In this document: in pieces, positions 2,840-32,000 of the stretch
Layout: every line of letters begins with the position of its first letter
How positions within the stretch are numbered: position 1 is the stretch's first letter
NCBI RefSeq assembly: GCF_016127575.1
Contig: NZ_CP066018.1
Location: 510,001-542,000, forward strand
Reading direction: 5' to 3'
DNA length: 32,000 bases
Source: Cupriavidus necator
GTDB taxonomy: Bacteria > Pseudomonadota > Gammaproteobacteria > Burkholderiales > Burkholderiaceae
Translations under genes and position numbers: made by a program
Notes under the pieces: model-generated
What the model was told of the DNA's origin: nothing
The model's input: only the letters and a program-made list of their open reading frames with translations
Database searches by the model: none

Positions 2840-4306
<1,467 letters not shown>

Positions 4307-7293: not shown

Positions 7294-9075
7294 TTACCCT
7301 TGCTGCGTCGCGAACTGGATCCGGTGCAGCCCGGCGTACAGGCCGTTGGCCGCAAGCAACTGCGCGTGCGTGCCCTGCTCCGCCACGCGCCCGTGGTCCA
7401 GCACCGCGATGCGGTCAGCATTCTCGATGGTGGACAACCGGTGCGCAATCACCAGCGTGGTCCGGCCCTTCATCAGTTCCTCCAGCGCCGCCTGGACCTG
7501 GCGCTCGGACTCCGAATCCAGTGCCGAAGTCGCCTCGTCCAGGATCAGGATCGGCGCGTTCTTATACAGCGCCCGGGCAATCGCCAGCCGCTGGCGCTGA
7601 CCGCCGGACAGCTTCATGCCGTTGTCGCCAATATTGGTGTTCAGGCCCTCCGGCAGCCCCTTGACCGTTTCCGTCAGGTAAGCGGCCGCCAGCGCGCGCT
7701 CAACGCGGGCCATGTCGATCTCGCGGTCGGATTGCGCGCCATATGCCACATTGGCGGCGACGGTGTCGTTGAACAGCACCACGTCCTGGCTGACGAAGGC
7801 AATCTGGTTGCGCAGGTCCTTCAGCGACAACTCGGTCAGCGGCGTGCCATCCAGCAGGATGCGCCCGCCAGTCGGGTCGAAGAAGCGCGGCACCAGGTTG
7901 ACCAGCGTGGTCTTGCCGCTTCCCGACGGGCCCACCAGCGCCACCACTTCGCCCGGACTGACGCGCAGGTCAATGCCCTCCAGCGCGGCGCGCGATGCTT
8001 CACCGTAGCGGAAGCCGACTTGCTCGAAGGCCAGCTCGCCACGGGCACGACCCAGCATCTTGCCACCGTCCTGCGGCTCGATCGGCTCATCGATCAGCCG
8101 GAAGATCATCTCGGCTGCGGTGATGCCGCGTGTCAGCGGCTGGTTGATGTCGGTCAGGTGCTTGAGCGGCGAGATCAGCAGCAGCATCGCCATCACAAAG
8201 CCGGTAAAACCGCCCACCGTGGTCTGGTTGGCCTGCGCCTGCACCATCGCAATGGTGATGATCACCGACAGCGCCAGCGCGGCCAGGAAGGCCGTGACCG
8301 GCTGGTTCAACCCGCCGGCAACCGCCATGCGCATCGAGTAGTTCTTGAGCCGCTCGGCCACGGTGCGGAAGCGGCCCATCTCGTAGGCCTCGCCGCCGTG
8401 CAGCTTGACCACCTTGTAGCCGCCCACGGCCTCTTCCACGACATAGGCAGCGTTGTTGGTAAAAGCCTGGTGATCGCGGTTGAGCTTGCGCAGCCGGCGG
8501 TTGATCTTCGACATCAGGTAGCCGATCACCGGCAGGATCACCGCCACGATCAGCGTCAGGCGCCAGTTGGTATAGAACAGGTAGATCAGCAGCGCGACAA
8601 CCGTCAGCGAGTCCCGCACCAGCGTGATAAAGACGCTGGTCAGGATCTGCAGCACCTGGTTGACCTCGAAGATCACGGCGTTGATCAGCGAAGCCGCCGT
8701 GTTGCGGTGGAAGAACGACGCCGGCGCCTGCAGCAGGCGCTCGAACATCTGCAGGCGCATCTTCAGCAGCACGCGGTTCGAGATCAGGTTCAGCAGGTAG
8801 CCCGAGGCAAACTGCGCCACGCCGCGGATCAGGGCCACGCCGGTCAGGATGGCGGGGACATGCCACAGCGTGCCGGCGTAGTCGCCGCCGAAGCCCTTGT
8901 CGAGCAGGTCATTGACAACCTTGGGGATCACCCCTTCGCTGCCCGCAACCACGGCCATGGCGAGGATAGCGCCGATGAAGATGCGTAACTCGGGGCGCAG
9001 GTAAGACCAGAGCCGGCTGGCCATGCTGGACGGCACGGCGGCACCTGGCGAAATGGGCGGTTTGGATGTGGTCAC
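7294..9075 (-). CDS. msbA: lipid A export ABC transporter, fused permease/ATPase
   Basis: 593-aa ORF with an N-terminal six-helix TMD, Walker [10 protein letters not shown], signature LSGGQRQR and Walker [13 protein letters not shown]. The LPS-gene context supports MsbA. Confidence 0.9.
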
Positions 9076-9115: not shown

Positions 9116-9889
9116 CTAGCCCGGCCGCTTCTGCCGGGCTACCCGAAGGAAGGGCCTGACGATGAGCTGGAACAGGAAGCGCTGATAGACGTAGCGGCGC
9201 AGATAATAGCCGATGCTGCGCTGAGCCTTGTCGGTGGCGTCCAGGTCGGCGCGATGCGTTTCGAGCGACGAGGTCTCGGCCAGCTCGGTCAGGCCGATGC
9301 AATATGGCACCACCGCACTGACCGACACCAGGCCCTGCTTTTCGAAGGCCGACCAGTAGTCGGCCGCGCACCACATCGGCTGCAAGCCCGCCAGCAGCCG
9401 TCGCGCTGCGGCACGCGTCACCACGTAGCCGTGCGCGCGCCACCATTCGCCGTAGCGCCTGACCAGGCGTCGTTCACCGCCGAGCCTGCGGGCACCCCAG
9501 CGGGTGTACTTGTCGACATGGGACAGCAGCACTACCTCGGCCCGGTCCGGATCCAGGCGCGACTCCAGGTCGGCCAGCACGGTTGCCAGGTCGGGGCCAG
9601 GCGAAGCATCGTCCTCCAGCACCAGCGCAAAGGCGGCGCCGTCGTCGAGCATCTTGCGGTATACACCGAGGTGGCTCAACCCGCACCCGACCTCGCCCCG
9701 GCTCATTGGCCGGTAGCGCGCGGCGGCGGCCGCGGCATCGTACTTGCTGGCCACTTCCTGCTCCGCCAGCACGCGGCCATCCACGGCCCGGAACACCTGG
9801 AACGGGATGCCAAGGCCCGCCAGCTGGCCGGAAATGCGCTCCCGGCGTTCCCGCGCGGAGTCGAGATTGATGACGTAGGCGCCGATCAT
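9116..9889 (-). CDS. glycosyltransferase family 25 (LPS/LOS core biosynthesis)
   Basis: ATG at 9889 ([38 protein letters not shown]...[10 protein letters not shown]...ALVLEDD) is a typical GT25 N-terminal pattern. Confidence 0.8.
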
Positions 9890-10188
9890 GCGGCCAGCAC
9901 CAGTGTGTCCAGTCTTGCCCAGATTGCAGCGGGCAACTGAGAGACCAATGCTGCACGCGCAGGCAGAAGGAAGACTTCTTCCATCCCGGCGGAACGGAAC
10001 AATTGTGCTCGTATCATCAATTTGAGTTTCAGGGAGCGGCCCGCTAGCCGACTCGATGGCATCAGGGTGCGCGGAGGGCGCCATGCGCCAGTGCGGTAGA
10101 ATACGCGGTCTCGATCCAGCGCCTGGCGCCGTGGGCGACTCCGGCGGCCCGTCGGTCTTGTCCGACCTGCGTGCCTCCCCTATGTTCC

Positions 10189-11004: not shown

Positions 11005-12078
11005 ATGAAAGTTGGCATCTCCTGCAATCGCTTCGGCGCTGGCGGCGGCCTGGAACGCTATGCGCTCGACATCAGCCGGGCCATGGCAGGCCGCGCCGGC
11101 ACCGAGGTGTCGGTCTACGCGCGCCGCTTCGACGCCGGCGTGGCAGAGTCGGCCGGCATTGTCCCGCACCGGATCGTGGTGTCGTGGCTGCCCGGCAAGC
11201 TGCGCGACCGCTACTTCTCGTGGCGGCTGCAAGCGCGCCGTCCCGCGGACGAAGTGCTGATCGGCTGCAACCGCGTGCGCGGCTCCGATATCGCCATCTG
11301 CGGCGGCACCCATCGCGGCTATCTCGGCGCGCGCGGCACGACAGCGCGCCGCTCCGACCAGTGGCAGATCGACCTGGAGAGTGCGCAGTATGCTGGCGCG
11401 CACCGCGTGGTGGCACATTCGGCGCTGATGCGCCGCGAGGTGATCGAGCTGTACGGGATGCCGCCGGACCGCGTGGAACTGATCTACCCGCCGGTCGACA
11501 CGCAGCGCTTCACGCCGGTCGACGCCGACGCGCGCGCCGCGTTGCGCCGTGAGTTCGGTTTCGGTGACGATGAGGTCGTATTCCTGTTCCCGTCTTCGGG
11601 CCATGCCCGCAAGGGTTTCGACCTGCTTGCCGACTATTTCTCCAAATCGGACCTGCCGATCACGCTTGCCGTGGCCGGCCGTCCGGTCGGGCGCACCATC
11701 CCGCGGGTACGGGAACTGGGCTACAGCAGCCGCATCGACGCGCTCTACCGCGCCGCGGACTTCACCATCCTGGCGTCGGGCTATGAACCGTTCGGACTGG
11801 TCGGCGTGGAATCGGTGCTGTGCGGCACACCGCTGGTCTTTGCCGACAATATTGCCTGCCTGGAGGTGATCCGGCCGCAGGCGGTGCATGCCTTCGCACG
11901 CGATCGCGCCGAGACGCTCGACCGCGCGATTCACGCCGCGGTCGACGCGGCACGCAGCGGCCAGGGCCGGCTGGCGAATCCGATGGCGATGCTCAACTAC
12001 GATCCGGGCATCGAGGCCCACGTCGACGCGCTGCTAGCACTGGCGGCCAGCGCGCGCGCCGCCCGGCAGGCGGCCTGA
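11005..12078 (+). CDS. glycosyltransferase family 4 (GT-B, group 1)
   Basis: 357-aa ORF whose C-terminal ASGYEPFGLVGVESVLCGTPLV matches the EX7E motif of GT4 enzymes. Confidence 0.8.
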   Translation: MKVGISCNRFGAGGGLERYALDISRAMAGRAGTEVSVYARRFDAGVAESAGIVPHRIVVSWLPGKLRDRYFSWRLQARRPADEVLIGCNRVRGSDIAICGGTHRGYLGARGTTARRSDQWQIDLESAQYAGAHRVVAHSALMRREVIELYGMPPDRVELIYPPVDTQRFTPVDADARAALRREFGFGDDEVVFLFPSSGHARKGFDLLADYFSKSDLPITLAVAGRPVGRTIPRVRELGYSSRIDALYRAADFTILASGYEPFGLVGVESVLCGTPLVFADNIACLEVIRPQAVHAFARDRAETLDRAIHAAVDAARSGQGRLANPMAMLNYDPGIEAHVDALLALAASARAARQAA

Positions 12079-12097: not shown

Positions 12098-15000
12098 TTA
12101 TTCGTAGAGGGTGCTGACGCTGTCCGGCGACAGTGCCAGCCGCAACGCGGTCAGCGCCTCGTCGGAGGGCACCACCTTCCAGTCCGCTCCGAGCATGGCC
12201 TCGCACGAAGCCGCCCCCGACTGGTAGTGGATGCGCACCGGCAAACCCTGTCCACCGCTGGCGCGGGCCAGGTGCGGCATCAGCAGTTCGCGCAGCATCC
12301 CGGTCGAGGAATTGCCATTCATCGACAACCGCACGGCGCTGGCAAACTTGACGCGTGCGGCCACCAGGTCCATCACCGATTCCGCCGTAAACCTCACCCC
12401 ACCGGTAAACGTATCGTGCCGCGCGTTCCCCGTGGCGATCAGCAGCTCGTCCTCGCGGAACATGTGCCGGTTGGCGTCGAACAGCTCGTTGAACACCGTC
12501 ATCTCGACCAGCCCGGTGCCGTCGTCGAGCGTGACGATCACCATCTTGCCGCGCTGCGTCATCTGCGTGCGGACGCCGCTGATCACGCCGGCGATGGTCT
12601 TGCCGCGCACGTCGCGGCCGAAACCGCCGCCGTTGCCCTGCACTTCCTTTTCCAGCGCGGCCAGCGTGCCCTTGTTGAAGCGGCGCACCTCGTCGCGGTA
12701 GGCATCGAACAGGTGGCCTGAGAAGTAGTAGCCGAGCGCCTGCTTCTCTTCCTGCAGCGTGCGCTTGGGACTCCAGCGCGGCTCGTCGAGCAGCTCGGGG
12801 CGGTGCGCATCGCCGGCATCGCCCATCAGGTCGAACAGCGACACCTGGTTGGCGGACTCGGCCTTCTGCTCGGCGGCCTCCATCGCGATCGGCACCGAGG
12901 CCAGCAGCTGGGCGCGGTTGTCGTTCAGGCTGTCGAAGGCGCCGGCGCGGATCAGCGCCTCGATGGTGCGGCGATTGACCTGGCGGCGGTCGACGCGTTC
13001 GCAGAAGTCGAACAGATCGGTGAACGGGCGCTCCTCGCGTGCGCGCAGGATATCTTCGATCGCGCCCTGGCCGCTGCCCTTGATGCCACCAAGGCCGTAG
13101 CGGATGGTCTTGGGGTCGGTCGGCGCGAAGCGGTATTCGCTGGCGTTGACGTCCGGCGGCAGCACCGCGAGCTTGTTGAGCTTGCAGTCCTCGTAGAGGA
13201 TCTTGACCTTGTCGGTGTCGTCCATGGCGAGCGACATGTTGGCTGCCATGAATTCGGCCGGATGGTGGGCCTTGAGCCAGGCGGTGTAGTACGCCAGCAG
13301 CGCATACGCGGCCGCGTGCGACTTGTTGAAGCCGTAGCCCGCGAACTTCTCCATCAGGTCGAAGATATCGTCGGCCTGCTGCGCGGAGAGGCCGTTCTTG
13401 TCGGCGCCTTCGCGGAACATGACGCGATGCTGGGCCATCTCCTCGGGCTTCTTCTTGCCCATGGCGCGGCGCAGCAGGTCGGCGCCGCCGAGCGAGTAGC
13501 CGCCGATGATCTGCGCCATCTGCATCACCTGCTCCTGGTAGACCATGATGCCGTAGGTCTCTTTCAGGACGGGTTCGACGCGCGGATCCGGGTACTCCAC
13601 CTTCTCGCGGCCGTGCTTGCGCGCGCAGAAGCTGGGGATCAGGTCCATCGGGCCCGGGCGGTACAGTGCCACCAGCGCGATGATGTCCTCGAAGCGGTCA
13701 GGCTTGGCGTCCTTCAGCATGCCCTGCATGCCGCGGCTTTCCAGCTGGAACACGGCGACCGTGTTGGCGGTCTTGAGGATATCGAAGGCGGGACCGTCGT
13801 CGAGCGGGATATGGCTGCAGTTCCAGTCAGCCTTGCTGGGGTCGAGACGGCGGATATAGCGCTCGGCCCAGTCCAGGATGGTCAGCGTGGTCAGGCCCAA
13901 AAAGTCGAACTTGACCAGGCCGGCGGCCTCGACGTCGTCCTTGTCGTACTGGCTGACCACGCCGCTCATGCCGTCGTTCTGCGCGCCCTGCGTGTACAGC
14001 GGGCAGAAGTCGGTCAGCCGGCCGGGCGCGATCAGCACGCCGCCGGCATGCATGCCGACGTTGCGGGTCATGCCTTCGACGCGCTGTGCCAGCTCCAGCA
14101 GCTGGCGCACTTCTTCCTCGTTGCTCTCGCGCTCGGTCAGCAGCGGCTCTTCCTTCTTGGCTTCCTCGATGGTGACCAGCTTGCCCGGCTTGAACGGGAT
14201 CAGCTTGGCGATGCCGTCGACAAAGCCGTAGCCGAGATCGAGCACCCGGCCCACGTCGCGCACCGCGGCCTTTGCCGCCATGGTGCCGAAGGTGGCGATC
14301 TGCGATACCGCGTCCTTGCCGTACTTCTCTTTCACGTACGTGATCACGCGATCGCGGCCGTGCTGGCAGAAGTCGATGTCGAAGTCGGGCATCGAGACCC
14401 GTTCCGGGTTCAGGAAACGCTCGAACAGCAGCGCGTACTTGAGCGGATCCAGGTCGGTAATGCCGAGCGCATACGCGACCAGCGAACCGGCGCCCGAACC
14501 GCGGCCCGGTCCCACCGGCACGCCGTTGTTCTTGGCCCAGTTGATAAAGTCCGCCACGATCAGGAAGTAGCCGGGGAAGCCCATCTTGATGATGGTGCCG
14601 GTCTCGAATTCCAGCCGTGCGTAGTATTCCGGGCGCTTGGATTCGCGCACCGCCTCGTCGGGGAACAGCACCGCCAGGCGCTTCTCCAGCCCGTCCTTGG
14701 CCATGTAGACCAGGTAGTCGTCCAGCGACATGCCGTCGGGCGTCGGGAACAGCGGCAGGCGCGGCTTGCCCAGTTCCAGCGTCAGGTTGCAGCGGCGCGC
14801 GATCTCGACCGCGTTCTCCAGTGCCGAGGGGATGTCGGCGAATAGCGCGCACATCTCGTCCTGGGTCTTGAAGTACTGGTCGGTGGTAAAGCGCCGCGTG
14901 CGGCGCGGATTGGCCAGCAGCTCGCCCTCGGCGATGCACACGCGCGCCTCGTGCGCGGTGTAGTCGTCCGGCGTCATGAACTGCACCGGATGCGTGGCCA

Positions 15001-15619
15001 CCACCGGCAGTTGCAGTTCCGCCGCCAGTTGCACGGCCTGCTGCACGTAGGCATCGGTGCCGGCATTGCCGGCGCGCTGCAGTTCGATGTAGAAGCGCTG
15101 CGCGAATACCGTGGACCAATGCTGTGCCGCGCGGCGCGCACCGTCGGCATTGCCGTTGGCCAGCGCCATGCCGATATCGCCACCCATTGCGCCCGACAGG
15201 GCGATCAGGCCGGTCGCGAGCGGCAGGTCGTCTTCGCCGGGTTCCAGGAACCAGGCCGGATCGATCTCGGCGCGGCCGCGGTGCTGGTTGCCCAGCCACG
15301 CGCGCGACAACAGCATGCACAGGTTCAGGTAGCCGCGGCGGTCCTGCACCAGCAGCAGCAGGCGCGACGGCTTGTCGCGGTCTTCGGCGTTGGTGAGCCA
15401 GACGTCGGCACCGACCACCGGCTTCACGCCCTTGCCGCGCGCCTCCTTGTAGTAACGGATCAGCCCGAAGGCGTTGGCGAGATCCGTCAGGGCGAGCGCG
15501 CCCATGCCGTCGGCGGCAGCGGCCTTGACGGCGTCTTCCAGGCGGACGATGCCGTCCACGATGGAGTATTCGGAATGCAGGCGGAGGTGTACGAAGCGGG
15601 GTGCGGACATGGGCGACAT
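12098..15619 (-). CDS. dnaE: DNA polymerase III alpha subunit
   Basis: About 1170-aa ORF with a PHP domain start (FVHLRLHSEYSIVDG), polymerase core (GPGRGSGAGSLVAYALGITDLDP, MPDFDIDF) and a C-terminal OB fold. Start chosen at the ATG at 15619; the ATG at 15610 is also possible. Confidence 0.93.
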   Translation of the reverse strand: MSPMSAPRFVHLRLHSEYSIVDGIVRLEDAVKAAAADGMGALALTDLANAFGLIRYYKEARGKGVKPVVGADVWLTNAEDRDKPSRLLLLVQDRRGYLNLCMLLSRAWLGNQHRGRAEIDPAWFLEPGEDDLPLATGLIALSGAMGGDIGMALANGNADGARRAAQHWSTVFAQRFYIELQRAGNAGTDAYVQQAVQLAAELQLPVVATHPVQFMTPDDYTAHEARVCIAEGELLANPRRTRRFTTDQYFKTQDEMCALFADIPSALENAVEIARRCNLTLELGKPRLPLFPTPDGMSLDDYLVYMAKDGLEKRLAVLFPDEAVRESKRPEYYARLEFETGTIIKMGFPGYFLIVADFINWAKNNGVPVGPGRGSGAGSLVAYALGITDLDPLKYALLFERFLNPERVSMPDFDIDFCQHGRDRVITYVKEKYGKDAVSQIATFGTMAAKAAVRDVGRVLDLGYGFVDGIAKLIPFKPGKLVTIEEAKKEEPLLTERESNEEEVRQLLELAQRVEGMTRNVGMHAGGVLIAPGRLTDFCPLYTQGAQNDGMSGVVSQYDKDDVEAAGLVKFDFLGLTTLTILDWAERYIRRLDPSKADWNCSHIPLDDGPAFDILKTANTVAVFQLESRGMQGMLKDAKPDRFEDIIALVALYRPGPMDLIPSFCARKHGREKVEYPDPRVEPVLKETYGIMVYQEQVMQMAQIIGGYSLGGADLLRRAMGKKKPEEMAQHRVMFREGADKNGLSAQQADDIFDLMEKFAGYGFNKSHAAAYALLAYYTAWLKAHHPAEFMAANMSLAMDDTDKVKILYEDCKLNKLAVLPPDVNASEYRFAPTDPKTIRYGLGGIKGSGQGAIEDILRAREERPFTDLFDFCERVDRRQVNRRTIEALIRAGAFDSLNDNRAQLLASVPIAMEAAEQKAESANQVSLFDLMGDAGDAHRPELLDEPRWSPKRTLQEEKQALGYYFSGHLFDAYRDEVRRFNKGTLAALEKEVQGNGGGFGRDVRGKTIAGVISGVRTQMTQRGKMVIVTLDDGTGLVEMTVFNELFDANRHMFREDELLIATGNARHDTFTGGVRFTAESVMDLVAARVKFASAVRLSMNGNSSTGMLRELLMPHLARASGGQGLPVRIHYQSGAASCEAMLGADWKVVPSDEALTALRLALSPDSVSTLYE

Positions 15620-15736
15620 TGTACCGGCTCGGGCCGCTGGCATGCCTCCGATATTGCGTGCGGGCGGCCTGGCGCGAGGGCCCGGCATAGCTGATCGGAG
15701 TGCTTGGGAATGCGCGGCGGCGGCGCCCGCACGCGT

Positions 15737-15742
15737 TATAAT
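15737..15742 (+). promoter_or_regulatory. possible -10 element for trhO
   Basis: A perfect TATAAT lies in GC-rich intergenic DNA 76 nt upstream of the trhO ATG. No convincing -35 was seen. Confidence 0.25.
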
Positions 15743-15817
15743 TTCACCTTTCCAATCAGGCAGTTATCGCAAGCCGTCGGCGCCCTTCGGGACGCGGCCG
15801 CGCAGGCGCAGTCTCCC

Positions 15818-16666
15818 ATGCAGATCGTCAATATTTCCGCTTACAAATTCGTCTCGCTGGACGACATCGAGACCCTGCGCCCGGCCATGCGCGAGCGCTG
15901 CGAAGCGGCCGGCCTGAAGGGCACGATCCTGCTCGCGCCCGAAGGCATCAATATGTTCCTGGCCGGGCCGCGCGCAGCCATCGACGGTTTCATGGACTGG
16001 CTGCACGCCGATGCGCGCTTTGCCGATATCGCGCCCAAGGAAAGCCTGTCGGAAAACCAGCCCTTCAAGCGCATGCTGGTGCGCGCCAAGAAGGAAATCA
16101 TCACCATGAAGATGCCGCTGATCCGCCCCGAGGAAGGCCGCGCGCCGTCAGTGCGTCCGGCCGAACTGAAGCGCTGGCTGGACCAGGGGCACGACGACGA
16201 AGGCCGCCCGGTGGTGATGCTGGACACGCGCAATGATTTCGAAGTCGCGGTTGGCACGTTCGAAGACGCCGTGGAATATGACATCGCCAAGTTCAGCGAA
16301 TTTCCCGAGGCGGTGGCGGCCCACAAGGCGGAGCTGGAAGGCAAGACCGTGGTGTCGTTCTGCACCGGCGGCATCCGCTGCGAGAAGGCGGCGATCCATA
16401 TGCAGGAAGTCGGCGTCGAGCGCGTGTACCAGCTCGAGGGCGGCATCCTGAAGTACTTCGAGGAAGTCGGCGGCAGCCATTATCGCGGCGACTGCTTCGT
16501 CTTTGACTACCGCACCGCGCTGAACCCCAACCTGGAGCCAGCCGGCCCCAAGCAGTGCTTTGCCTGCCGCGCGGTGGTCACGCCGCAGGAGCAGCAAAGC
16601 CCGCACTACGTGGTCGGCAAGAGCTGCCCCCACTGCATCGGCAGCAAGGACCAGGCCGCAGCGTAA
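15818..16666 (+). CDS. trhO: rhodanese-domain tRNA U34 hydroxylase (UPF0176/YceA family)
   Basis: ATG at 15818 ([16 protein letters not shown]...[16 protein letters not shown]). It has the rhodanese active-site loop [10 protein letters not shown] and a C-terminal Cys cluster. Confidence 0.85.
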
Positions 16667-22733: not shown

Positions 22734-23642
22734 GTGCATTTCGACCTGCTCGACATTGCCGTCTTCGTCCGCGCCGCGGCGCTGGGCAATCTGTCGGCCG
22801 CCGCGCGCGACCTGGGCTTGTCCACCTCCAGCGCCAGCGCCCGCCTGGGCCGGCTGGAACAGTCGCTGGGCAGCCGCCTGCTGCATCGCACCACCCGGCG
22901 GCTGGCACTCACCGCCGACGGCGAGCGCTTCCTGCCACATGCGGAGCAGTTGCTTGCCACCGCGGCTCTTGCCAGCGCATCGGTCGGCACCAGCGCCGAG
23001 CGCCCGCGCGGGCAGTTGCGCGTGACCGCGCCGGCGTCCTTCGGGCGCCAGCATGTCTCGCCGGCGCTGCCCGAATTCCTTGCCGCCTACCCCGATATCG
23101 CGCTTGACCTGCGCCTGACCGACCAGGTGATCGGACTGGTCGATGCCAGCATCGACGTGGCGCTGCGCATGGGCGTGCTGCCGGATTCCACGCTGGTGGC
23201 ACGCGCGCTCGCACCCAGCCACCGCGTGATCTGCGCCTCACCCGCCTACCTGCAGCGCCACGGCGTGCCGCGCCACCCGGACGACCTGCGCCAGCACAAC
23301 TGCCTGGTGCTGGCCGACCAGTCGGCGTGGCGCTTCAATACGCCGCTGGGCGAGACCGTGGTGCACGTGCGCGGCAACCTGCGCGTGGATAACGGCGAAG
23401 TGCTGCGTGATGCGGTGGTGGCCGGCGTCGGCATCTCGCTCAAGTCGACCTGGGATGTGGGCCCGCTGTTGCGCAGCGGCGCGCTCGTGACAGTACTGGA
23501 CGAATACCCGGTGGTGCCGGCAGTGTCGATCTGGGCAGTGTTTCCCAGCCGGCACCTGGTACCGCCCAAGACACGCGCCTTCGTGGATTTCTTCGCCGAG
23601 CGCTTCGGCAACCCGCCCTATTGGGACCGGCCCGATACCTAG
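22734..23642 (+). CDS. LysR family transcriptional regulator
   Basis: 302-aa ORF with an N-terminal wHTH (FVRAAALGNLSAAARDLGLSTSSASARLGRLEQSLGSRLLHRTTRRLALT) and a LysR substrate-binding domain. Confidence 0.9.
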   Translation: MHFDLLDIAVFVRAAALGNLSAAARDLGLSTSSASARLGRLEQSLGSRLLHRTTRRLALTADGERFLPHAEQLLATAALASASVGTSAERPRGQLRVTAPASFGRQHVSPALPEFLAAYPDIALDLRLTDQVIGLVDASIDVALRMGVLPDSTLVARALAPSHRVICASPAYLQRHGVPRHPDDLRQHNCLVLADQSAWRFNTPLGETVVHVRGNLRVDNGEVLRDAVVAGVGISLKSTWDVGPLLRSGALVTVLDEYPVVPAVSIWAVFPSRHLVPPKTRAFVDFFAERFGNPPYWDRPDT

Positions 23643-23938: not shown

Positions 23939-24808
23939 TCAGAACAGCGAACCCTGCGGATCGTCCTTGCCGCGGGGCCCCCTGACTGGCGGGCGGAAAC
24001 GCGACGTATCCAGCTCGAACCGGTTGTAACGAAACCCTAGCCGTTCGGCGGCCTTGTAGAAACGCTGGCGCAGCAAGTCCGCCCACACGCCCGTACCGCG
24101 CATGCGCGAGGCAAAGCTGGCATCGTAGGCTTTGCCCTCGCGCATGTCGCGCACGCGGTTCATCACCCGTTCCGCGCGCTCGGGAAAATGCGCCAGCAGC
24201 CATTCCTCGAACAGAGGCCGCACTTCCCAGGGCAGCCGCAGCACGATGTAGTTTGCATAGACGGCGCCCGCTTCGTGCGCCGCTTCCAATACACGCTCCA
24301 GGTCGGGTTCGGTGATGAACGGGATCACCGGGGCGATGCTCACACCCACCGGGATGCCGGCGTCGGTCAGCGTGCGGATGGTGCGCAGCCGGCGTGACGG
24401 CGTGGCCGCGCGCGGCTCCAGCGTGCGCGCGATGCCAGCATCCAGCGTGGTGATGGTGACCGCCGCCACCGCCAGCCGCTTCGCCGCCATCGGCGCGAGC
24501 AGGTCGATATCGCGCTCGATCAGAGACGACTTGGTAATCAGCGCCACCGGGTGGTCGCACTCGTTCAGCACCTCCAGCACGCCGCGCGTGATGCGCTGTT
24601 CGCGCTCGATCGGCTGGTAGGCGTCGGTGTTGACGCCCAGCGCGATGGTCTCGCAGCGGTAAGACGGCCGTGCCAGCGCCTCGCGCAACCGCTCGGCGGC
24701 GTTGGCTTTGGCATAAAGCTGCGTTTCAAAGTCCAGCCCTGGCGACAGGTCCAGGTAGGCGTGCGTCGGCCGGGCGAAGCAGTAGATGCAGCCGTGTTTT
24801 ATGGTCCG
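23939..24808 (-). pseudogene. 5'-truncated native radical-SAM gene (PA0069/SplB-like family)
   Basis: The open frame reads ..RTIKHGCIYCFARPTHAYLDLSPGLDFET...DDPQGSLF and is collinear with residues ~82-361 of the intact paralog at 24957..26042. An in-frame TGA lies at 24809-24811. Roughly the first 80 codons and the first Cys of CxxxCxxC are absent. Homology stops at about 24800, where G+C drops. Confidence 0.75.
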
Positions 24809-24914
24809 TCATTTTGTTCACGTTAGTTGGTAACTCCCTGTGCCATCAACCTCTCTGGGTATTTTTTCCGTGCGATGGTGGGGGGGCGCGAACATTGTTT
24901 TTCACGGCCAAATA

Positions 24915-24930
24915 CTGTATATATATACAG
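24915..24930 (+). promoter_or_regulatory. LexA (SOS) box
   Basis: CTGTATATATATACAG is a perfect CTGT-N8-ACAG palindrome (extended form TACTGTATATATATACAGT, 24913-24931). It lies 27 nt upstream of the radical-SAM ATG and overlaps a possible TTCACG-N17-TATACA promoter. Confidence 0.8.
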
Positions 24931-24956
24931 TGCATCAAGACTTAAGAGAGGCGCTG

Positions 24957-26042
24957 ATGACATCACTTCGCCCGGGACTTCGCAAGGGCCGAGGCGCGCT
25001 GTCCAACATTGAATCCAGGTTCGACAATTGGGACAGAGCGCACGACGACGATGCACTTGCAGCCATTTTAGAGCTCGAGGGTGAACGCCCCGCGCCCAAA
25101 ACAACTGTAGCATTTGAGGATGCAAAATCAATCATCTCGAGAAACCAATCGCCAGATGTCCCATTTGACCAGTCGATTAATGCATACCGGGGATGTGAAC
25201 ATGGTTGCTCGTACTGTTTTGCCCGGCCTACGCATGCATATTTAGGCCTTTCCCCCGGCCTTGATTTTGAGACCAAGCTTACTGCGAAGCCAAATGCTGC
25301 TGTGTTACTCGAGAAAGAGCTTTCAAAACGTACCTATATACCTAGCGTAATTGCCCTCGGTACCAATACTGACCCATACCAGCCTATTGAGCGAGAACAC
25401 CAGCTGACTCGCAGAATCCTCGAGGTGCTCGAGGCTTTCAATCATCCGGTAGCGATTACTACCAAGTCGCATCTCGTGACACGCGACATCGACATCCTCT
25501 CGCGGATGGCGGAGAAGGGTCTCGCTCGCGTCTATCTCTCCGTCACCACGCTGGATGCGGAGCTTGCTAGGAGGATGGAGCCGCGTGCCAGCACCCCATC
25601 TAGGCGAGTGGACGCTATTCGCATGCTGACTGCTGCCGGGATACCCACCGGTGTATTGGCCGCGCCTATGATTCCCGCGCTTAACGATTATGAACTGGAG
25701 AATATCCTAAGCGCAACTGCAAATGCCGGTGCGTCCGCTGCCGCTTATGTGTTGCTCAGATTACCGCTGGAGGTGCACGACATCTTCATCGAATGGCTCG
25801 AGCAACACTACCCCGGACGGAAGAATCATGTCCTGAGCATTATTGAAAGCATGAGAGACGGCAAGCATTATGACGCCGAATTCGGGCGCAGAATGCGCGG
25901 CACGGGCATATTCTCAGAGCTGATTGCCAAACGATTCGAGCTTGCATGCAATCGGCTCGGCCTCAATCAGGAACGCAGAAAACTGCGTACCGACCTATTC
26001 CAGGCACCCATTAATCCTTCGCCCCAGGGAAGCTTATTCTGA
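24957..26042 (+). CDS. radical SAM protein, PA0069 / SplB-like (COG1533) family, intact lower-G+C copy
   Basis: ATG at 24957 follows AGAGAGG. It carries the CEHGCSYC radical-SAM cluster motif, and its 361 aa are collinear with the truncated native copy on the opposite strand. Confidence 0.85.
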   Translation: MTSLRPGLRKGRGALSNIESRFDNWDRAHDDDALAAILELEGERPAPKTTVAFEDAKSIISRNQSPDVPFDQSINAYRGCEHGCSYCFARPTHAYLGLSPGLDFETKLTAKPNAAVLLEKELSKRTYIPSVIALGTNTDPYQPIEREHQLTRRILEVLEAFNHPVAITTKSHLVTRDIDILSRMAEKGLARVYLSVTTLDAELARRMEPRASTPSRRVDAIRMLTAAGIPTGVLAAPMIPALNDYELENILSATANAGASAAAYVLLRLPLEVHDIFIEWLEQHYPGRKNHVLSIIESMRDGKHYDAEFGRRMRGTGIFSELIAKRFELACNRLGLNQERRKLRTDLFQAPINPSPQGSLF

Positions 26043-26204
26043 GGCAGTCAGGAATACTTGAGGTGACTTCGCCAGCCATAAACTCGCGGCTGCCACCACA
26101 GGTGTTTGCCGAGGCGGACTGGAGGCGCTCTCGAACCGCAAAAGTGAGGTGCGCTAGCCGCCGGCTTGTGCAAACCCAAAACGACGGTAGGCCATCAGCC
26201 AGGC

Positions 26205-26246
26205 TGTGGATAAGCTGTTATTAACATGTGGATAGTCTGTGGATAG
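26205..26246 (-). repeat. three co-oriented DnaA-box-like 9-mers
   Basis: TGTGGATAA (26205-26213; the complement TTATCCACA is the consensus DnaA box) and TGTGGATAG twice (26227-26235, 26238-26246). Start-to-start spacing is 22 and 11 bp, with an AT-rich TTATTAA between boxes 1 and 2. Confidence 0.6.
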
Positions 26247-26547
26247 TGCGTTTGGCACGGGCGCCATGCGATTGATGGGGCGAACCATGGAGGTCTAGGA
26301 GTCCTACTAGGTAGTCACCAACCGAACGAGTTCGCCCCAAGAAATCGCGGACGTCCACGTGAACCCACCGTCGCGAAAACGCAACAGTTCCCAAAGTGCT
26401 TCGCCCGGCTCAACCGCGACCATGTCGCTAGAGTGGACCCGCATGCAGCCTTCCAGAAGGTCATATACCCGTAAAGGACTTGCGCATGTGCACCACAAAC
26501 CACGAGCACATTGTCCAATATCACCCACGTACCAACCGTAATCTGCC

Positions 26548-27253
26548 ATGACTGCCCATTGCCCGGAATGCTACGGCGAACGCGAATGTAGTGTCCATGG
26601 AGAGGTCAAAGTACCGTGGGAATGGACGGATGGACCGCATAGCGTCAACGGCCAGACGGATCATCGACTACTGCAGTGCTTGGGTTGCAAGACCGTGCTC
26701 TACTGGTCCAGCAGTTGGAATTCCGAAGATTGGGGATGGCCGCACTGGTGCCGACGGCAAGGAGCAAATCTATCACCCGCGTACCGTCACGACTTTCCCT
26801 ACACCGCAGCGCGTCAGCCGGCGTCCTGAATGGCTCGCCAAGATCGAGCAGATCGACGCCCATCTCTCGCAGATCTTGCACCAGACCTACATCGCCCTGG
26901 AAGCGGATGCGTTCATTCTAGCGTCGGTGGGCTTGCGTACCGCCTTTGACCGGACTACCGAGATCCTGAAACTCGATCCCGGACACACGCTGGAACAGAA
27001 GGTCGCCCTGCTTAAGGACAAGGGCTACATCGGGGAAACTGAGGCGGCAATTCTGTCAGTGGTTACCGATGCGGGCAATGCGGCCGCCCATCGCGGGTGG
27101 TCCCCTGGGGCTGCGGAATTCCGGGTCTTGCTTATCGCATTGGAGCAGTTCATCGAACGCACGGTGATTCAGGGCACCACTGCCCTAGGCATCGCCCAGC
27201 ACATCCCACCGCGGCACCCGCGCCCGAAGCGTGCATTCTCGGGGGCAAAGTAA
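26548..27253 (+). pseudogene. zinc-ribbon + DUF4145-like protein, apparently split by a +1 frameshift near 26730
   Basis: Frame 1 (26548..26829) starts MTAHCPEC...LLQCLGCKTVLY, i.e. CxxC...CxxC. Frame 2 (to 27253) carries LEQKVALLKDKGYIGETEAAILSVVTDAGNAAAHRGW, a DUF4145-type helical motif. The upstream part of frame 2 and the downstream part of frame 1 both look non-coding. The G-run TGGGGA lies at 26731-26736. Confidence 0.5.
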
Positions 27254-27396
27254 GCGTAATTATGTTGCCCCGCCTGCCGCGAAAAATGCCGACGCATTCA
27301 GCCTGCCTGGCGCCGTCCGCCCCGCCGTGGGTTTCCCCGCGCGGCGCGCCACCTTCCCCAGGGCTCCCCGCAAATGGAGGATCGCCTAGCCGCGCA

Positions 27397-28182
27397 ATGT
27401 CGGGTAGCATTCGCCGTGACGTGAAAGCCCCGCAAGGGGCATTGATCCCTCTGCCCATGTTTTCGTACGCCTGCAGCCAAACGGCCGCCCAGCACCCGCT
27501 CGCCTCTTTCCGCACGCCCGTCGACGGGCCGGAGCTGGAGATCGTGCGGTTGTTCTGCGAGACGCTGCCCGCCCGTGCACCGCGCAACCGCGCCACGACC
27601 GTATTTCTTGAACCCAGGATCGCGGGCTGCTTTCCCGATGTGGTCATCGTGCAGTGGGATCCCGCCATTGCGGCGGCCTGGGTGCCTGCGCGGGAGCACC
27701 TGGAAAGCGGCGATACGTTCTGGCTGCACTACCTGCATCAGGTCGGCACCCTCGATCCCACCGTCCTGTGCGAGCGACTGGGCAGGAAACGCGGCCTGCA
27801 GACATGGGAACGCCTGCTTGCCGCAGAGGTGGGCCGGCAGGCCGGGGACCGGTTGCGGCGCAAGCCACTGGCCGAGACCTATGCGATCAAGCGCCTCGTG
27901 GCTGTGGAGGCCAAGATCGGCAACTGGCGCCGCGGCCTGGAGCAGGCCTTCCAGAACACGTGGTTCGCCTCCGAGTCATTCCTGCTGCTCGATCGGCTTG
28001 AGGGCAAGGATGACCTGTTTCTCCGCGCCGCCGACCTAGGTATCGGCCTGATCGAGCCGGCCCACGGCATCGACGACAGCCGGCTGCCCGCCCGATGCGG
28101 CAAGCATCCGGTCTCCCAGGCGTCCTGGCTCTTCAACGAGTGCGTGCGGCGCGACGGTCCAAACACGGCGAGCCGACACTAG
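27397..28182 (+). CDS. hypothetical protein with PD-(D/E)xK nuclease-like motifs
   Basis: FLEPRIAGCFPDVVIVQWD (Asp codon 27637-27639) and LVAVEAKIGNWRRGLEQA (E-x-K at 27907-27915) flank a helical, wHTH-like segment. The start is ambiguous (27262, 27286, 27397 or 27457); 27397 was chosen because the upstream Pro-rich translation looks non-coding. The stop TAG directly abuts the kinase ATG. Confidence 0.55.
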   Translation: MSGSIRRDVKAPQGALIPLPMFSYACSQTAAQHPLASFRTPVDGPELEIVRLFCETLPARAPRNRATTVFLEPRIAGCFPDVVIVQWDPAIAAAWVPAREHLESGDTFWLHYLHQVGTLDPTVLCERLGRKRGLQTWERLLAAEVGRQAGDRLRRKPLAETYAIKRLVAVEAKIGNWRRGLEQAFQNTWFASESFLLLDRLEGKDDLFLRAADLGIGLIEPAHGIDDSRLPARCGKHPVSQASWLFNECVRRDGPNTASRH

Positions 28183-29028
28183 ATGCACGCGCCCCTGACC
28201 GATCTGCCTGCGGAATTCCAGCGTTTCCAGAATCTGCATTTCATTGCCTCGGGGGGACAGAAGATCGTCTTTCGCGGCACGTGCCCGCAGCATGGCGCCA
28301 TCGTCCTGAAAGTGTTCAATCCGGGAACCGACATGGCGCGGTTCGAACGCGAACTGAGCGCGGTACAGCGCATCCAGTGCCCCCTGACGCCCACCATCCT
28401 GGAATCGGGCATGACCCGGCAAGGCGGCCAACCGATCCCGTACGTGGTCGAGTCGTTCATCCCCGGCGCATCGATTCAGCAGCACCTGGACGCCGGCAGC
28501 CTGCAGGACCCGAATGTCGTCCGACTGGCGACCGACATCCTCCAGGTGCTCACCCTGACCGAGCAACGCGGTATCGTGCATCGCGACATCAAGCCTGCCA
28601 ACCTGCTCCTCCATGCCGACACGGGGGCGATCTGGCTGCTGGACTTTGGCATCGCGCGCCATCTTGACCGGACCGCCCTCACCGTGGGCCCCATCGGTCC
28701 CTGTACCGCCGGATTCGCGCCACCGGAGCAGTTCAACGCGCTCGCGGCCGAAGTCGACGTGCGCAGCGACCTGTTCGCCTTGGGCGTCACCCTTCATACC
28801 TGCATCGAAGGCCGCAACTTCTATTGCGAGGGCGCACGAGACCACGTGGAGGTCTTCCAGCGTGTGCAAAGCGTTCCCTTACCGCGGCTCACGCGCGAGC
28901 CTTGCGGTGTCGCGGGATTCGCCGACCTGGTGATGGCGCTCACGCAGATACGGCGCAGCCATCGGCCGCACTCGGCCGCCGAGGCACGTGACTGGCTCGC
29001 AGAACTGTTGGTCCAATACCAAGCATGA
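28183..29028 (+). CDS. Hanks-type serine/threonine protein kinase (stand-alone catalytic domain)
   Basis: 281 aa with IVLKVF (Lys), RFERE (Glu), VHRDIKPANLL (HRD at 28579-28587), LDFGIAR (DFG at 28642-28650), GFAPPEQ and DLFALGVTL. Confidence 0.85.
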   Translation: MHAPLTDLPAEFQRFQNLHFIASGGQKIVFRGTCPQHGAIVLKVFNPGTDMARFERELSAVQRIQCPLTPTILESGMTRQGGQPIPYVVESFIPGASIQQHLDAGSLQDPNVVRLATDILQVLTLTEQRGIVHRDIKPANLLLHADTGAIWLLDFGIARHLDRTALTVGPIGPCTAGFAPPEQFNALAAEVDVRSDLFALGVTLHTCIEGRNFYCEGARDHVEVFQRVQSVPLPRLTREPCGVAGFADLVMALTQIRRSHRPHSAAEARDWLAELLVQYQA

Positions 29029-29091
29029 GACAACCGCCCGCCCGCGCCAACGGTTTTCGGGACGGGGAGATTCTGACAGGGGGACATTGCG

Positions 29092-30297
29092 GTGGAACTG
29101 CATCTGCAAATGGGGCACGGCATGATGGACCATTGCCGCGTGCTGGTCGGCGCATGGCGGGGCGGCACCGTCGTGCTGAGTCCGCGCGATCTGGACATGC
29201 AGCAAATGGTCCGCCTGTCGGAGGATCTGGCGAGAGATGGCGGACGGGTCCTGCTTGACCCGCAGATGTTCCTGCCGCAGGCCAGCCACCCACGGCTGGT
29301 CGGCCATGCGCACTGGGCGCAGGGCGGCAACCTGCAACAACCTGCCACCGTGGCGCACATCATGGAACGCCTGATCGACATGAATGCGGCATGCGGCGCG
29401 CAGCAGATCATCCTGCCTGGCGCCCTGGCCGCAAAGGTCGACGCCGCCTGGCTGGATGCCATGGCGCAGGTCGGCGAATGCGCCCAGCGCCTGGGCGTCG
29501 ACAGTGCCCGCGCCATGCAGACCATTGCGCTGAGCTATGACGCTGTTCGCGATGACAAGCAGGTGGAAGCCGTTGTCGAGGCCATGGACGCCTGGCCCGC
29601 GCGCACCATCTATCTAATCGCCGAAGCCCCGTCGGGGGTCTATCTGGTGAACGATCCGACATGGTTCGCCAATATTCTGGACATCGTCGCCAGCGCCCGC
29701 TTGAGCGGAAAACAGGTCATGCTCGGCTATGCCAATCAGCAACTGCTGGTGGCCGCCTGCGCAGGCGCGAATGCCATCAGTTCGGGGACCTGGATGAACG
29801 TCCGTATCTTCATGCAAAATCGCTTCCTTGCCGCTGACGAGGAAGACCGGAAGACGCGCTCCACCTGGTACTACGCCCCCAATCTGTTCTCGGAGTACAG
29901 GATCCAGAATCTGGATATTGCCCAAAAGCTGGGCTTGCTCGACCATCTGCGCACACCGGACGATTTTGGCAGCGGGCATGCAGACGTCCTGTTCTCCTCG
30001 CTCCAGCCGACGCTGGCGGGCTTTGCCGAACCCAGTTCGTTCCGGCATTTCCTGCAGTGCCTGCGGACGCAAGCCCGCGCGGCCTCGCTGGGTTCATTCG
30101 AGAGCACGCTATCCAGTTACCGCCAGGCGCTCGACGCCGCCCAAGCAGTGCTCGAGCGCCTGGATAAAAAGTCCGTCTCAAGCAAGCAACGCAACATCCT
30201 GGCCAGCGAATGCATCGATGCCGTCCGCGCTGGCCTGCATGTCCTCGAACGGAACCACGGCCCTCGCCTGCGCAGGCTTTGGGGAAGACTGTCATAG
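29092..30297 (+). CDS. hypothetical 401-aa protein, no family recognised
   Basis: GTG start at 29092 is preceded by AGGGGGA. The long ORF is same-strand with protein-like composition and alternating hydrophobic-strand/helix segments (VVLSPRDLD, QIILPGA, TIYLIAEAP, VMLGYAN..GANAISSGTWMN). Confidence 0.6.
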   Translation: MELHLQMGHGMMDHCRVLVGAWRGGTVVLSPRDLDMQQMVRLSEDLARDGGRVLLDPQMFLPQASHPRLVGHAHWAQGGNLQQPATVAHIMERLIDMNAACGAQQIILPGALAAKVDAAWLDAMAQVGECAQRLGVDSARAMQTIALSYDAVRDDKQVEAVVEAMDAWPARTIYLIAEAPSGVYLVNDPTWFANILDIVASARLSGKQVMLGYANQQLLVAACAGANAISSGTWMNVRIFMQNRFLAADEEDRKTRSTWYYAPNLFSEYRIQNLDIAQKLGLLDHLRTPDDFGSGHADVLFSSLQPTLAGFAEPSSFRHFLQCLRTQARAASLGSFESTLSSYRQALDAAQAVLERLDKKSVSSKQRNILASECIDAVRAGLHVLERNHGPRLRRLWGRLS

Positions 30298-30468
30298 CCA
30301 GCGCGACCCGCTTGTCCATGCGCAGCGGTTGACCTAAGCGCGCGTCCCCGATGACGCGGTGGTGGTCAAACGCCACCGCCCCCCTGACCTACCTGGCGAC
30401 GCGCGGCTTGCCGATCGCCCGGCTCCGCCGCCGACGCCCTTTGCCCGGCGCCCGACACAGCCCAAGTC

Positions 30469-32000
30469 ATGACGAGTTCGAAATATCAGTTTCTGGCGCC
30501 CACGGTGGCGCTCCTTTCCGACAAGGTCGTACTGGCCCAGGCCTGGAAGAAAACGCACACCTATATCCGCAAACATAACTGGTTTGCCGACACGCTCGAA
30601 CTCGACACGTCGGCGGTCGATCTTGAGCAAACCTTGGAACAGTGGGCGCAAACGCTGCGCACAGGCCAATATCTTAACCAGGCGGCCAGGATGGTTCCCG
30701 CACCCAAAAGCGGCCGCTGGGTCATCGGCACCGTGCCCCAGCGGCCAGAGCCTGGCTGGTATCCCGTGGTCGACCCCGGTGAAGCGCCCGTTCTCCGGCC
30801 ACTCGCGCATCTTCCCGTCCGGGAGCAGACCGTGGCCAGTGCCCTCATGCTCTGTCTTGCGGATTGCATCGAAACGCTCCAGGGGCCCACCATCGGGCAT
30901 GCCGACTTCGCCGAGGCGCAGCGCATGGGCGTGTACAGCTATGGAAACCGCCTGCTGTGTTCCTGGACCGAGCTCCTGCCGGGGACGAAACATGCCCGGT
31001 TTCGTTGGGGCAACTCCGACATCTACACGCGATACTTCACCGACTATCAGCGATTCATCGACCGGCCCAAGTACTTTGCCGAACAGGCGCGCGACAAGGG
31101 TGGCACCGTGCTGCTCGTCAAGCTGGATCTGTCCGCTTTCTACGACAACATCGACGTTGGACGACTAATCGAGTCCCTGCGGCGACACTATGCGAAGTTT
31201 TGCGAAACATTTCCTGATTATCCCAAGCACGACGAGGATTTCCTCGCGGTGGCGCGCGAAGCCCTGACGCTGCGCTGGGATCCTCAGGACTCGACCTATG
31301 CGCCCCTGCTACGCGACCGCGCTCTACCCAGAGGTCTGGCGCAGGGTCTGGCCGCCAGCGGCTTCTTTGCCAACGCCTACCTGATCGACTTCGACAAGGA
31401 AATTGGACGTCAGCTCAACACCGCGATTCACTTCGAAGGAGACGAGTTCACTCTGGTGGACTACTGTCGGTACGTCGATGATCTGCGTATCGTCGTCTCG
31501 GTCGACGCCAGGCTGCCGCACACACACATCCCTGGCGTGATTACCCAATGGGTCCAGCGTATCCTGGACGTGACGGTGAACGAGCATGTCGAGGACGACC
31601 GCAACGTTCTGAAACTGAACGCACGCAAGACCGAGCACGAAGAGTTCGCGGCCGTCAGCGCGGAAAGTGGCGATGTGGCGGCCATGCGCCTGCTGCAGCA
31701 AAGCCTGAGTGGCCCGTTTGATCTGGAATCGCTCCAACAGACCTCGGCGGGCCTGAACGGCCTTCTCGCACTGGCCGAACTCAGCCGCGAGGCCGAGACA
31801 AGCGCTCCCTCGTCTTCGCCCTTGTCCCTCATCGAACGGCCCAAGCTACAGGTCAAGGACGATACGCTGACGCGGTTTGCAGCGTTTCGCCTTGTCAAAA
31901 GCCTGCGACTGAAGATGAGCTTTCTGGGCGAGGAGGCGGCCGGTGTCGCGCACGAATGCGAAGCCGTCGCGCGTCGCCTCGCGGCCGCCTGGGTCACGAA
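30469..32000 (+). CDS. reverse transcriptase (UG/Abi-like, non-retroviral), 3' end beyond the window
   Basis: Own translation from the ATG at 30469; the frame opens after a TGA at 30385-30387 and has no stop through 32000. RT motifs are VLLVKLDLSAFYDNID, LPRGLAQGLAASGFFANAYL, YCRYVDDLRIVV (YVDD at 31471-31482) and LKLNARKTEH. It is not in the ORF track because the ORF is open-ended. Confidence 0.85.
   Translation, partial: MTSSKYQFLAPTVALLSDKVVLAQAWKKTHTYIRKHNWFADTLELDTSAVDLEQTLEQWAQTLRTGQYLNQAARMVPAPKSGRWVIGTVPQRPEPGWYPVVDPGEAPVLRPLAHLPVREQTVASALMLCLADCIETLQGPTIGHADFAEAQRMGVYSYGNRLLCSWTELLPGTKHARFRWGNSDIYTRYFTDYQRFIDRPKYFAEQARDKGGTVLLVKLDLSAFYDNIDVGRLIESLRRHYAKFCETFPDYPKHDEDFLAVAREALTLRWDPQDSTYAPLLRDRALPRGLAQGLAASGFFANAYLIDFDKEIGRQLNTAIHFEGDEFTLVDYCRYVDDLRIVVSVDARLPHTHIPGVITQWVQRILDVTVNEHVEDDRNVLKLNARKTEHEEFAAVSAESGDVAAMRLLQQSLSGPFDLESLQQTSAGLNGLLALAELSREAETSAPSSSPLSLIERPKLQVKDDTLTRFAAFRLVKSLRLKMSFLGEEAAGVAHECEAVARRLAAAWVT

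Follow-up and report, generated by a model that had tools for sequence, protein, structure and literature searches.

A very probable DRT type 1 (UG1) reverse transcriptase-nitrilase gene truncated by the end of a Cupriavidus necator chromosomal window

The 32,000-nucleotide stretch of Cupriavidus necator DNA analyzed here (the window; assembly GCF_016127575.1, contig NZ_CP066018.1, positions 510,001 to 542,000) ends inside a long open reading frame (ORF) for a reverse transcriptase (RT), which we denote drt1. This ORF is very probably the 5' 40% of a single-gene anti-phage system of the defense-associated reverse transcriptase (DRT) type 1, that is, a UG1 member of the class 3 UG/Abi RTs, located on the Cupriavidus chromosome. 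Judged by its sequence, drt1 is intact and an ordinary representative of the known DRT1 family, to which it adds a Cupriavidus member. Class 3 of the UG/Abi RTs, to which UG1/DRT1 is assigned, is defined by an RT combined with a nitrilase or a phosphohydrolase (Mestre et al. 2022, PMC9226505; PMC13275509). The defence activity of DRT1 was first demonstrated by Gao et al. 2020 (cited in PMC9226505), and its cryo-electron microscopy (cryo-EM) structure, 9YFD, together with the mechanism, was reported by Neville et al., Nat Struct Mol Biol 2026 (PMC13275509).

No stop codon interrupts frame 1 of the forward strand between 30388 and the end of the window at 32000, i.e. over 537 codons, an open stretch that given the local base composition would occur by chance with a probability of ~2.6e-7. 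The earliest start is the ATG at 30469, there being no ATG, GTG or TTG between the upstream in-frame TGA and this position, and this start matches the N-termini of the homologs in the alignment. Thus, the claim of a preliminary description, made from the letters of the window and a list of its ORFs, that an ORF of more than 510 amino acids (aa) had escaped the list because it runs off the window, was confirmed. The two listed forward ORFs in this region (30584..31168 and 30864..31217) are read in the remaining two forward frames, and those of the minus strand overlap drt1; all of these are shadow ORFs of a gene with 63% guanine-plus-cytosine (GC) content, as had been proposed. Between the first 510 codons of drt1 and those of the closest relative (contig L010, 76% aa identity), codon positions 1, 2 and 3 differ at frequencies of 0.18, 0.11 and 0.56, respectively, and the nonsynonymous divergence (dN) is 0.19; because the synonymous divergence (dS) was saturated (NG86), only the codon-position differences and dN are given. 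This codon-position pattern is the one expected under purifying selection and indicates that such selection has probably acted on drt1.

The RT palm motifs LDLSAFYDNI, GLAQGLAASGFFANAYL, YVDD and LKLNARKTEH follow each other in the canonical order, exactly where the preliminary description had put them. That description had also proposed profile searches with PF00078 and the UG/Abi groups, and had taken the absence of a significant RVT_1 match as grounds for rejection. With the part of the protein encoded in the window as the query (the results in this paragraph all refer to this part), Pfam RVT_1 narrowly exceeded its cut-off (31.7 vs 29.6 bits). It is the family-specific model that makes the RT call decisive: PADLOC PDLC03745, Drt1a, was the best match, covering residues 8-509 and profile positions 5-469 of 1176 (551 bits, E=1.4e-165), and all other UG/Abi groups in PADLOC gave E=3e-21 or worse. 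The only solved structure that matched by sequence was 9YFD, entitled 'Defense-associated reverse transcriptase 1' in PDB (phmmer, residues 3-509 vs 5-493, E=3.7e-69). The NCBIfam models for retrons, group II introns, Drt2, Drt3 and AbiA all fell far under their cut-offs (for instance, group_II_RT_mat, 35.9 bits vs 300, and retron_St85_RT, 29.3 vs 235). Considering these low scores, the absence of any RNA family in an Rfam scan of the window and the lack of conservation of the sequence upstream of drt1 (below), this RT is neither a retron RT nor a group II intron RT, in line with the lack of retron and maturase motifs pointed out in the preliminary description.

A search of genome contigs with the RT did not find the continuation of the window, and an exact 40-mer search of metagenome contigs returned no matches. 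The product of a 401-aa ORF upstream of drt1 is 100% identical to the database entry P0257, which occurs on over 50 contigs of public assemblies, and six of the contigs bearing it (L011-L016), all from other samples, extend past base 32000. Their identity to the window is 99.98-100% over 4.5-8 kb, reaching base 32000, and all six carry the same uninterrupted RT ORF of 1258 codons, the first 510 residues of which are those of the window and which ends at the window-equivalent position 34245; the 2245 bases past the window correspond to L011 7972-10216. The contig extension suggested in the preliminary description was thereby achieved. The full 1258-aa protein matches Drt1a over profile positions 5-1176 of 1176 (1306 bits) and aligns end to end with chain A of 9YFD (phmmer, residues 3-1252 vs 5-1227, E=6.1e-176). 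As one polypeptide of 1258 aa, it fits the range of 1200-1300 aa given for the single-polypeptide UG1 proteins (Mestre et al. 2022, PMC9226505).

From the N-terminus to the C-terminus, the full protein is predicted to comprise an extension, RT fingers and palm, a flexible region for priming, a domain of alpha-helical repeats and a nitrilase. About 47 residues of the repeat domain lie within the window, starting with DDTLTRFAAFRL, and the recovered ORF aligns continuously with residues 480-860 of 9YFD. The nitrilase Glu-Lys-Cys triad is present in the ORF of L011-L016 as E1036 (FPELS), K1098 (NQGK) and C1136 (ICYDATD), with C1136 aligned to C1116, the catalytic cysteine in DRT1. Near the C-terminus, KTPPAGLRR corresponds to KTQPAGFKR of DRT1, a region that forms a swapped lid in the DRT1 filaments (PMC13275509). 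In the N-terminal region, the many invariant residues among the aligned DRT1 relatives include AWKK (25-28), PAPK (77-80), RPLAH (110-114) and SYGNRL (157-162), and in motif C, Y335-V-D337-D338 is invariant among 72 relatives. The corresponding aspartates of DRT1, D324 and D325, have been mutated, with loss of defence (PMC13275509).

The serine that primes DNA synthesis in DRT1, S402, was mapped by mass spectrometry and is not conserved among other class 3 DRTs (PMC13275509). In the L-INS-i alignment, S402 shares a column with S414 of drt1, which is invariant in 72 of the 72 aligned relatives. The pairwise phmmer alignment sets S402 opposite E420, six residues downstream, in a region that is variable and loosely aligned; thus, the prediction of S414 as the priming residue draws on the multiple alignment and the invariance of this serine. 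S414 belongs to the Ala/Leu/Glu-rich stretch that follows the palm (residues ~395-465), which the preliminary description considered the beginning of a helical-repeat C-terminus. The stretch is helical, as described, but it is not simply the start of the repeats: it corresponds to DRT1 residues 382-478, the segment with the priming serine, which is unresolved in the cryo-EM map (PMC13275509). Taken together, the functional residues demonstrated experimentally in DRT1 are all conserved in the drt1 product.

An AlphaFold2 (AF2) model of the 510 residues (predicted local distance difference test, pLDDT, 91.6; predicted template modelling score, pTM, 0.90) places helices at 401-413, 419-444, 464-489 and 491-509 after the palm, with S414 in the loop between the first two; the confidence dips at ~441-460. 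When this model was compared with PDB using Foldseek (a copy ending on 2026-04-08, which predates the release of 9YFD), the best matches were generic RT folds with a template modelling (TM) score of ~0.44, AbiA and Abi-P2 being among many. These predicted similarities are consistent with the RT identity and do not discriminate between families.

The mode of action that we propose is derived by homology with DRT1 (PMC13275509), and the present analysis contributes the sequence-level prerequisites, the family membership and the integrity of the gene. The RT domain would polymerize deoxynucleoside triphosphates, template-free, from the hydroxyl of Ser414, yielding short, semi-random single-stranded DNA that stays covalently attached. 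The covalent DNA adduct would then drive the formation of nitrilase-mediated tetramers and their stacking into filaments, where the swapped C-termini would cover the nitrilase site (Glu1036-Lys1098-Cys1136) and hold the effector dormant. Phage infection would free the nitrilase, and the ensuing substrate turnover would result in abortive infection. For T4, release of the DRT1 nitrilase depends on the single-stranded DNA helicase Dda of the phage (PMC13275509). Protein-primed or template-independent DNA synthesis, which the preliminary description suggested assaying in vitro, has been shown for the DRT1 family (PMC13275509).

Several points weigh against this assignment. The 3' 60% of drt1 lies beyond the window and has been deduced from L011-L016, which derive from other samples and agree with the window where they overlap it. 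The identity between the drt1 product and the characterized DRT1 is only ~38%, so that the trigger, the phage range and the DNA product could differ. The leader between drt1 and the preceding gene contains no recognizable sigma-70 promoter, terminator or known RNA family. Its sequence is not conserved in the closest relative (L010), where the blastn match begins at 30481, inside the ORF; this lack of conserved upstream sequence, promoter consensus and terminator would be in keeping with a class 3 system independent of non-coding RNA. Finally, the Drt1b model had no matches among all the neighbouring ORFs even at E<=10, the Shewanella control gene being detected at 4e-61. For the Klebsiella DRT1 studied by Gao et al., this transmembrane partner reportedly matters. 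DRT1 can function without Drt1b, and drt1b is optional, occurring in ~18% of the loci (PMC13275509). In being a single gene without drt1b, drt1 resembles most DRT1 loci, and it resembles the protein of 9YFD in architecture, length (1258 vs 1229 aa), end-to-end alignment, the YVDD motif, the priming serine, the Glu-Lys-Cys triad and the lid motif; it differs, apart from the modest identity, in its host (Cupriavidus, Betaproteobacteria) and in that its nearest relative, at 77%, is metagenomic. At ~38% identity to DRT1, the drt1 product could serve as a divergent homolog for probing the generality of Ser-primed synthesis and filament locking.

Among the alternatives, the preliminary description had favoured a class 1 UG/Abi RT akin to AbiA, AbiK or Abi-P2, i.e. 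a protein in which the palm would be followed by a helical-repeat C-terminus only and protein-primed DNA synthesis would be the effector. AbiK, Abi-P2 and AbiA indeed resemble drt1 in the RT-like palm followed by helical repeats and in the template-independent, protein-primed DNA synthesis predicted here; the region after the palm is helical, AbiA and Abi-P2 occur among the Foldseek matches, and the AbiA, UG9 and UG10 models detect the window part at E=1e-5 to 1e-10. The score of no class 1 model exceeds 37 bits (E>=3.5e-10), however, compared to 551 bits for Drt1a, and the similarity of AbiK, Abi-P2 and AbiA to drt1 is marginal (E ~1e-9). These proteins have no nitrilase effector and their DNA synthesis itself is thought to be sufficient, whereas the full drt1 product has a C-terminal nitrilase, its triad intact, and can be aligned with DRT1 from end to end. 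The class 1 reading is thus already refuted by the full-length sequence, and we assign it next to no probability; of the earlier proposal, the UG/Abi affiliation stands and the class does not. Equally improbable is a UG5-large RT-nitrilase of the DRT11 type (Sinorhizobium meliloti, PMC13436386), which has the same domain architecture, is likewise a class 3 UG/Abi RT with a C-terminal nitrilase and works without a transmembrane partner. The UG1 nitrilases nest within the UG5 radiation (PMC13436386), and RT_UG5-nitrilase is the next-best PADLOC group after Drt1a for the full protein (E=8e-37). UG5 is, however, another RT clade, its score is one-tenth that of Drt1a (125 vs 1306 bits), and drt1 has the priming serine that is specific to UG1 (PMC13275509).

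A broken or split DRT1 gene, with the RT ending soon past the window and the nitrilase missing or encoded separately, is suggested by the many interrupted relatives (frameshifts in L001, L002 and L008, an amber codon in L006, insertion sequences in L005 and L009) and by the apparently genuine two-gene versions of Pseudomonas and Shewanella. Given that six independent contigs matching the window to its last base have a continuous ORF of 1258 codons, and that the closest relative (77%) is fused as well, we regard such a break in drt1 as very improbable. It is unlikely, too, that drt1 is part of a larger multi-gene system comprising the upstream module of a 261-aa protein, a kinase and a 395-aa protein, or the downstream genes for 292-aa and 210-aa proteins in the place of Drt1b. 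The neighbours are co-directional and closely spaced within a region of lower GC content, the 292-aa ORF, starting 118 nt past the RT stop, has two predicted N-terminal transmembrane helices, and some DRT1 systems require a transmembrane partner (PMC13436386). However, the upstream module is intact without an RT in Desulfosarcina widdelii, the neighbours differ at the other DRT1 loci examined, and the downstream genes are found in none of these loci and do not match Drt1b. The version of this idea in which drt1, lacking Drt1b, forms one composite defence system with unannotated genes of its island, the candidates being the two downstream ORFs and the upstream module, is quite unlikely; if correct, it would amount to a new defence system rather than to independent systems that merely share an island. 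The two-helix 292-aa ORF had been considered as a candidate Drt1b and was rejected on the grounds of the Drt1b search and its absence from other DRT1 loci. A single-gene DRT1 thus remains by far the preferred reading.

The composition of the set of relatives depended on the search. The first, word-indexed homolog search listed only proteins of <=877 aa, and its two closest full-length matches (L001 and L002) each have downstream a second gene with a match to the C-terminal half of Drt1a, so that a split UG1 clade with a separate nitrilase gene was considered. An exhaustive search of 1.84 billion representatives yielded mostly fused proteins of 1200-1330 aa; the best relative, P0121, is a metagenomic protein of 1261 aa, with 77% identity over the query and an end-to-end match to Drt1a. 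The list of exclusively short proteins was thus an ascertainment artefact, the split clade was dropped for drt1, and conclusions on the architecture drawn from the word-indexed search alone would have been wrong.

Many of the related DRT1 genes are interrupted, each at a different site. In L001 (9930-10090), a frameshift is located just after a T5G6 run, and L002 (9800-9890) has a frameshift as well; in both, homologous residues continue in the downstream frame through the 'intergenic' DNA, which marks each case as a single frameshift of a fused gene. L008 has a frameshift at ~6980, and in L006 a frame of 1267 codons is broken by a single TAG (amber) at codon 720 (8158-8160). Insertions of the IS110, IS66 or DDE type cut the genes of L009 (7173-8450) and L005 (8627-11800), and the gene of L007 runs to the edge of the contig. 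These interruptions may represent decay of a costly toxin gene, sequencing error or regulation. The two-gene variants of Pseudomonas aeruginosa and Shewanella, by virtue of a break point conserved among diverged members, look like genuine ones. In P. aeruginosa (L003, 6001-9841), a 731-aa gene for the RT and helical repeats overlaps by 20 nt a 554-aa gene for helical repeats and the nitrilase, and in Shewanella (L004, 6001-10261), genes of 730 aa and 543 aa share an ATGA overlap and are accompanied by Drt1b (147 aa, E=4e-61). Unfused nitrilase forms have been described for UG5-small and UG6, and UG1 only as fused proteins of 1200-1300 aa (Mestre et al. 2022; PMC13436386).

The coordinates of drt1, its motifs and the neighbouring genes are collected in Table 1. 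The window is chromosomal, as judged by the genes for DnaE, RNase G, an MsbA-like ABC transporter and lipopolysaccharide (LPS) glycosyltransferases, and the Cupriavidus chromosome backbone spans 1-23700. The GC content drops from 0.65-0.70 to 0.55-0.58 at 24-27 kb and does not recover across the RT and the genes that follow it. This lower GC content suggests an acquired island of ~14 kb, with the left edge at 24000-27300 (a fall from ~0.68 to 0.54-0.58), and the island, which contains many unannotated genes, is probably a defence island.

Table 1 Features of the window and of its continuation in L011; positions in the window unless indicated otherwise.
Feature	Position	Strand	Basis or remark
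RNase G	2840-4306		99% identical to Cupriavidus necator group
MsbA-like ABC transporter	7294-9075	-	
Glycosyltransferase	9116-10084	-	
Glycosyltransferase	11005-12078	+	
DnaE	12098-15688	-	
Rhodanese/UPF0176 gene	15704-16666		
LysR regulator	22734-23642		
Radical SAM gene	24957-26042		
DUF4145 gene	26597-27253		
Upstream module	27397-30297	+	
261-aa protein of the module	27397-28182	+	
Ser/Thr kinase of the module	28183-29028	+	
395-aa protein of the module	29110-30297	+	
Leader between 395-aa gene and drt1, 171 nt	30298..30468	+	intergenic
In-frame TGA, upstream ORF boundary	30385-30387	+	sequence read
drt1 (UG1 RT-nitrilase), first 510 codons	30469..32000	+	open frame, PADLOC Drt1a, 9YFD, contigs L011-L016
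N-terminal region, ~200 residues	30469..31068	+	invariant columns in DRT1 alignments; high pLDDT (AF2)
RT motif A LDLSAFYDNI, residues 219-228	31123..31152	+	invariant catalytic Asp D220
RT motif B GLAQGLAASGFFANAYL, from G289	31333..31383	+	Q292 and G298 invariant
RT motif C YVDD, residues 335-338	31471..31482	+	D337/D338 align with DRT1 D324/D325 (9YFD)
LKLNARKTEH, residues 381-390	31609..31638	+	invariant K387
LSGPFD motif; S414 at 31708-31710	31705..31722	+	predicted priming serine, DRT1 S402 equivalent
Start of alpha-helical repeat domain, ~residues 464-510, DDTLTRFAAFRL...	31858..32000	+	predicted helices; aligns with 9YFD from ~450 onward
Downstream 292-aa, 210-aa and 395-aa ORFs	L011 10334-13417 (window-equivalent 34363-37446)		

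Within the upstream module, the kinase matches PD-T4-6 of PADLOC (E=2e-38), and the 395-aa protein has no matches in Pfam, PADLOC or PDB and more than 170 homologs in multiple phyla. In Desulfosarcina widdelii (L017, 4320-7209), the three genes of the module occur in the same order (34/40/42% identity), adjoining an integrase, in an RT-free neighbourhood. Because the module is intact there without an RT, and because other DRT1 loci have unrelated neighbours, it appears to be a unit separate from drt1 and is a candidate for an uncharacterized defence module independent of DRT1. This conserved, kinase-containing three-gene module and the two-gene DRT1 variants of Pseudomonas and Shewanella may be more interesting leads than drt1 itself.

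On the other side of drt1, the 210-aa ORF overlaps the 292-aa ORF by 11 nt, and the 292-, 210- and 395-aa ORFs had no Pfam or PADLOC match and were present in none of the other DRT1 loci examined. There is no tRNA in the window and no integrase was seen there. Near the left edge of the putative island, a segment of 766 bp (24031-24796) is 81% identical to Ralstonia syzygii megaplasmids in a megablast search against plasmids, a similarity unrelated to the continuation of drt1.

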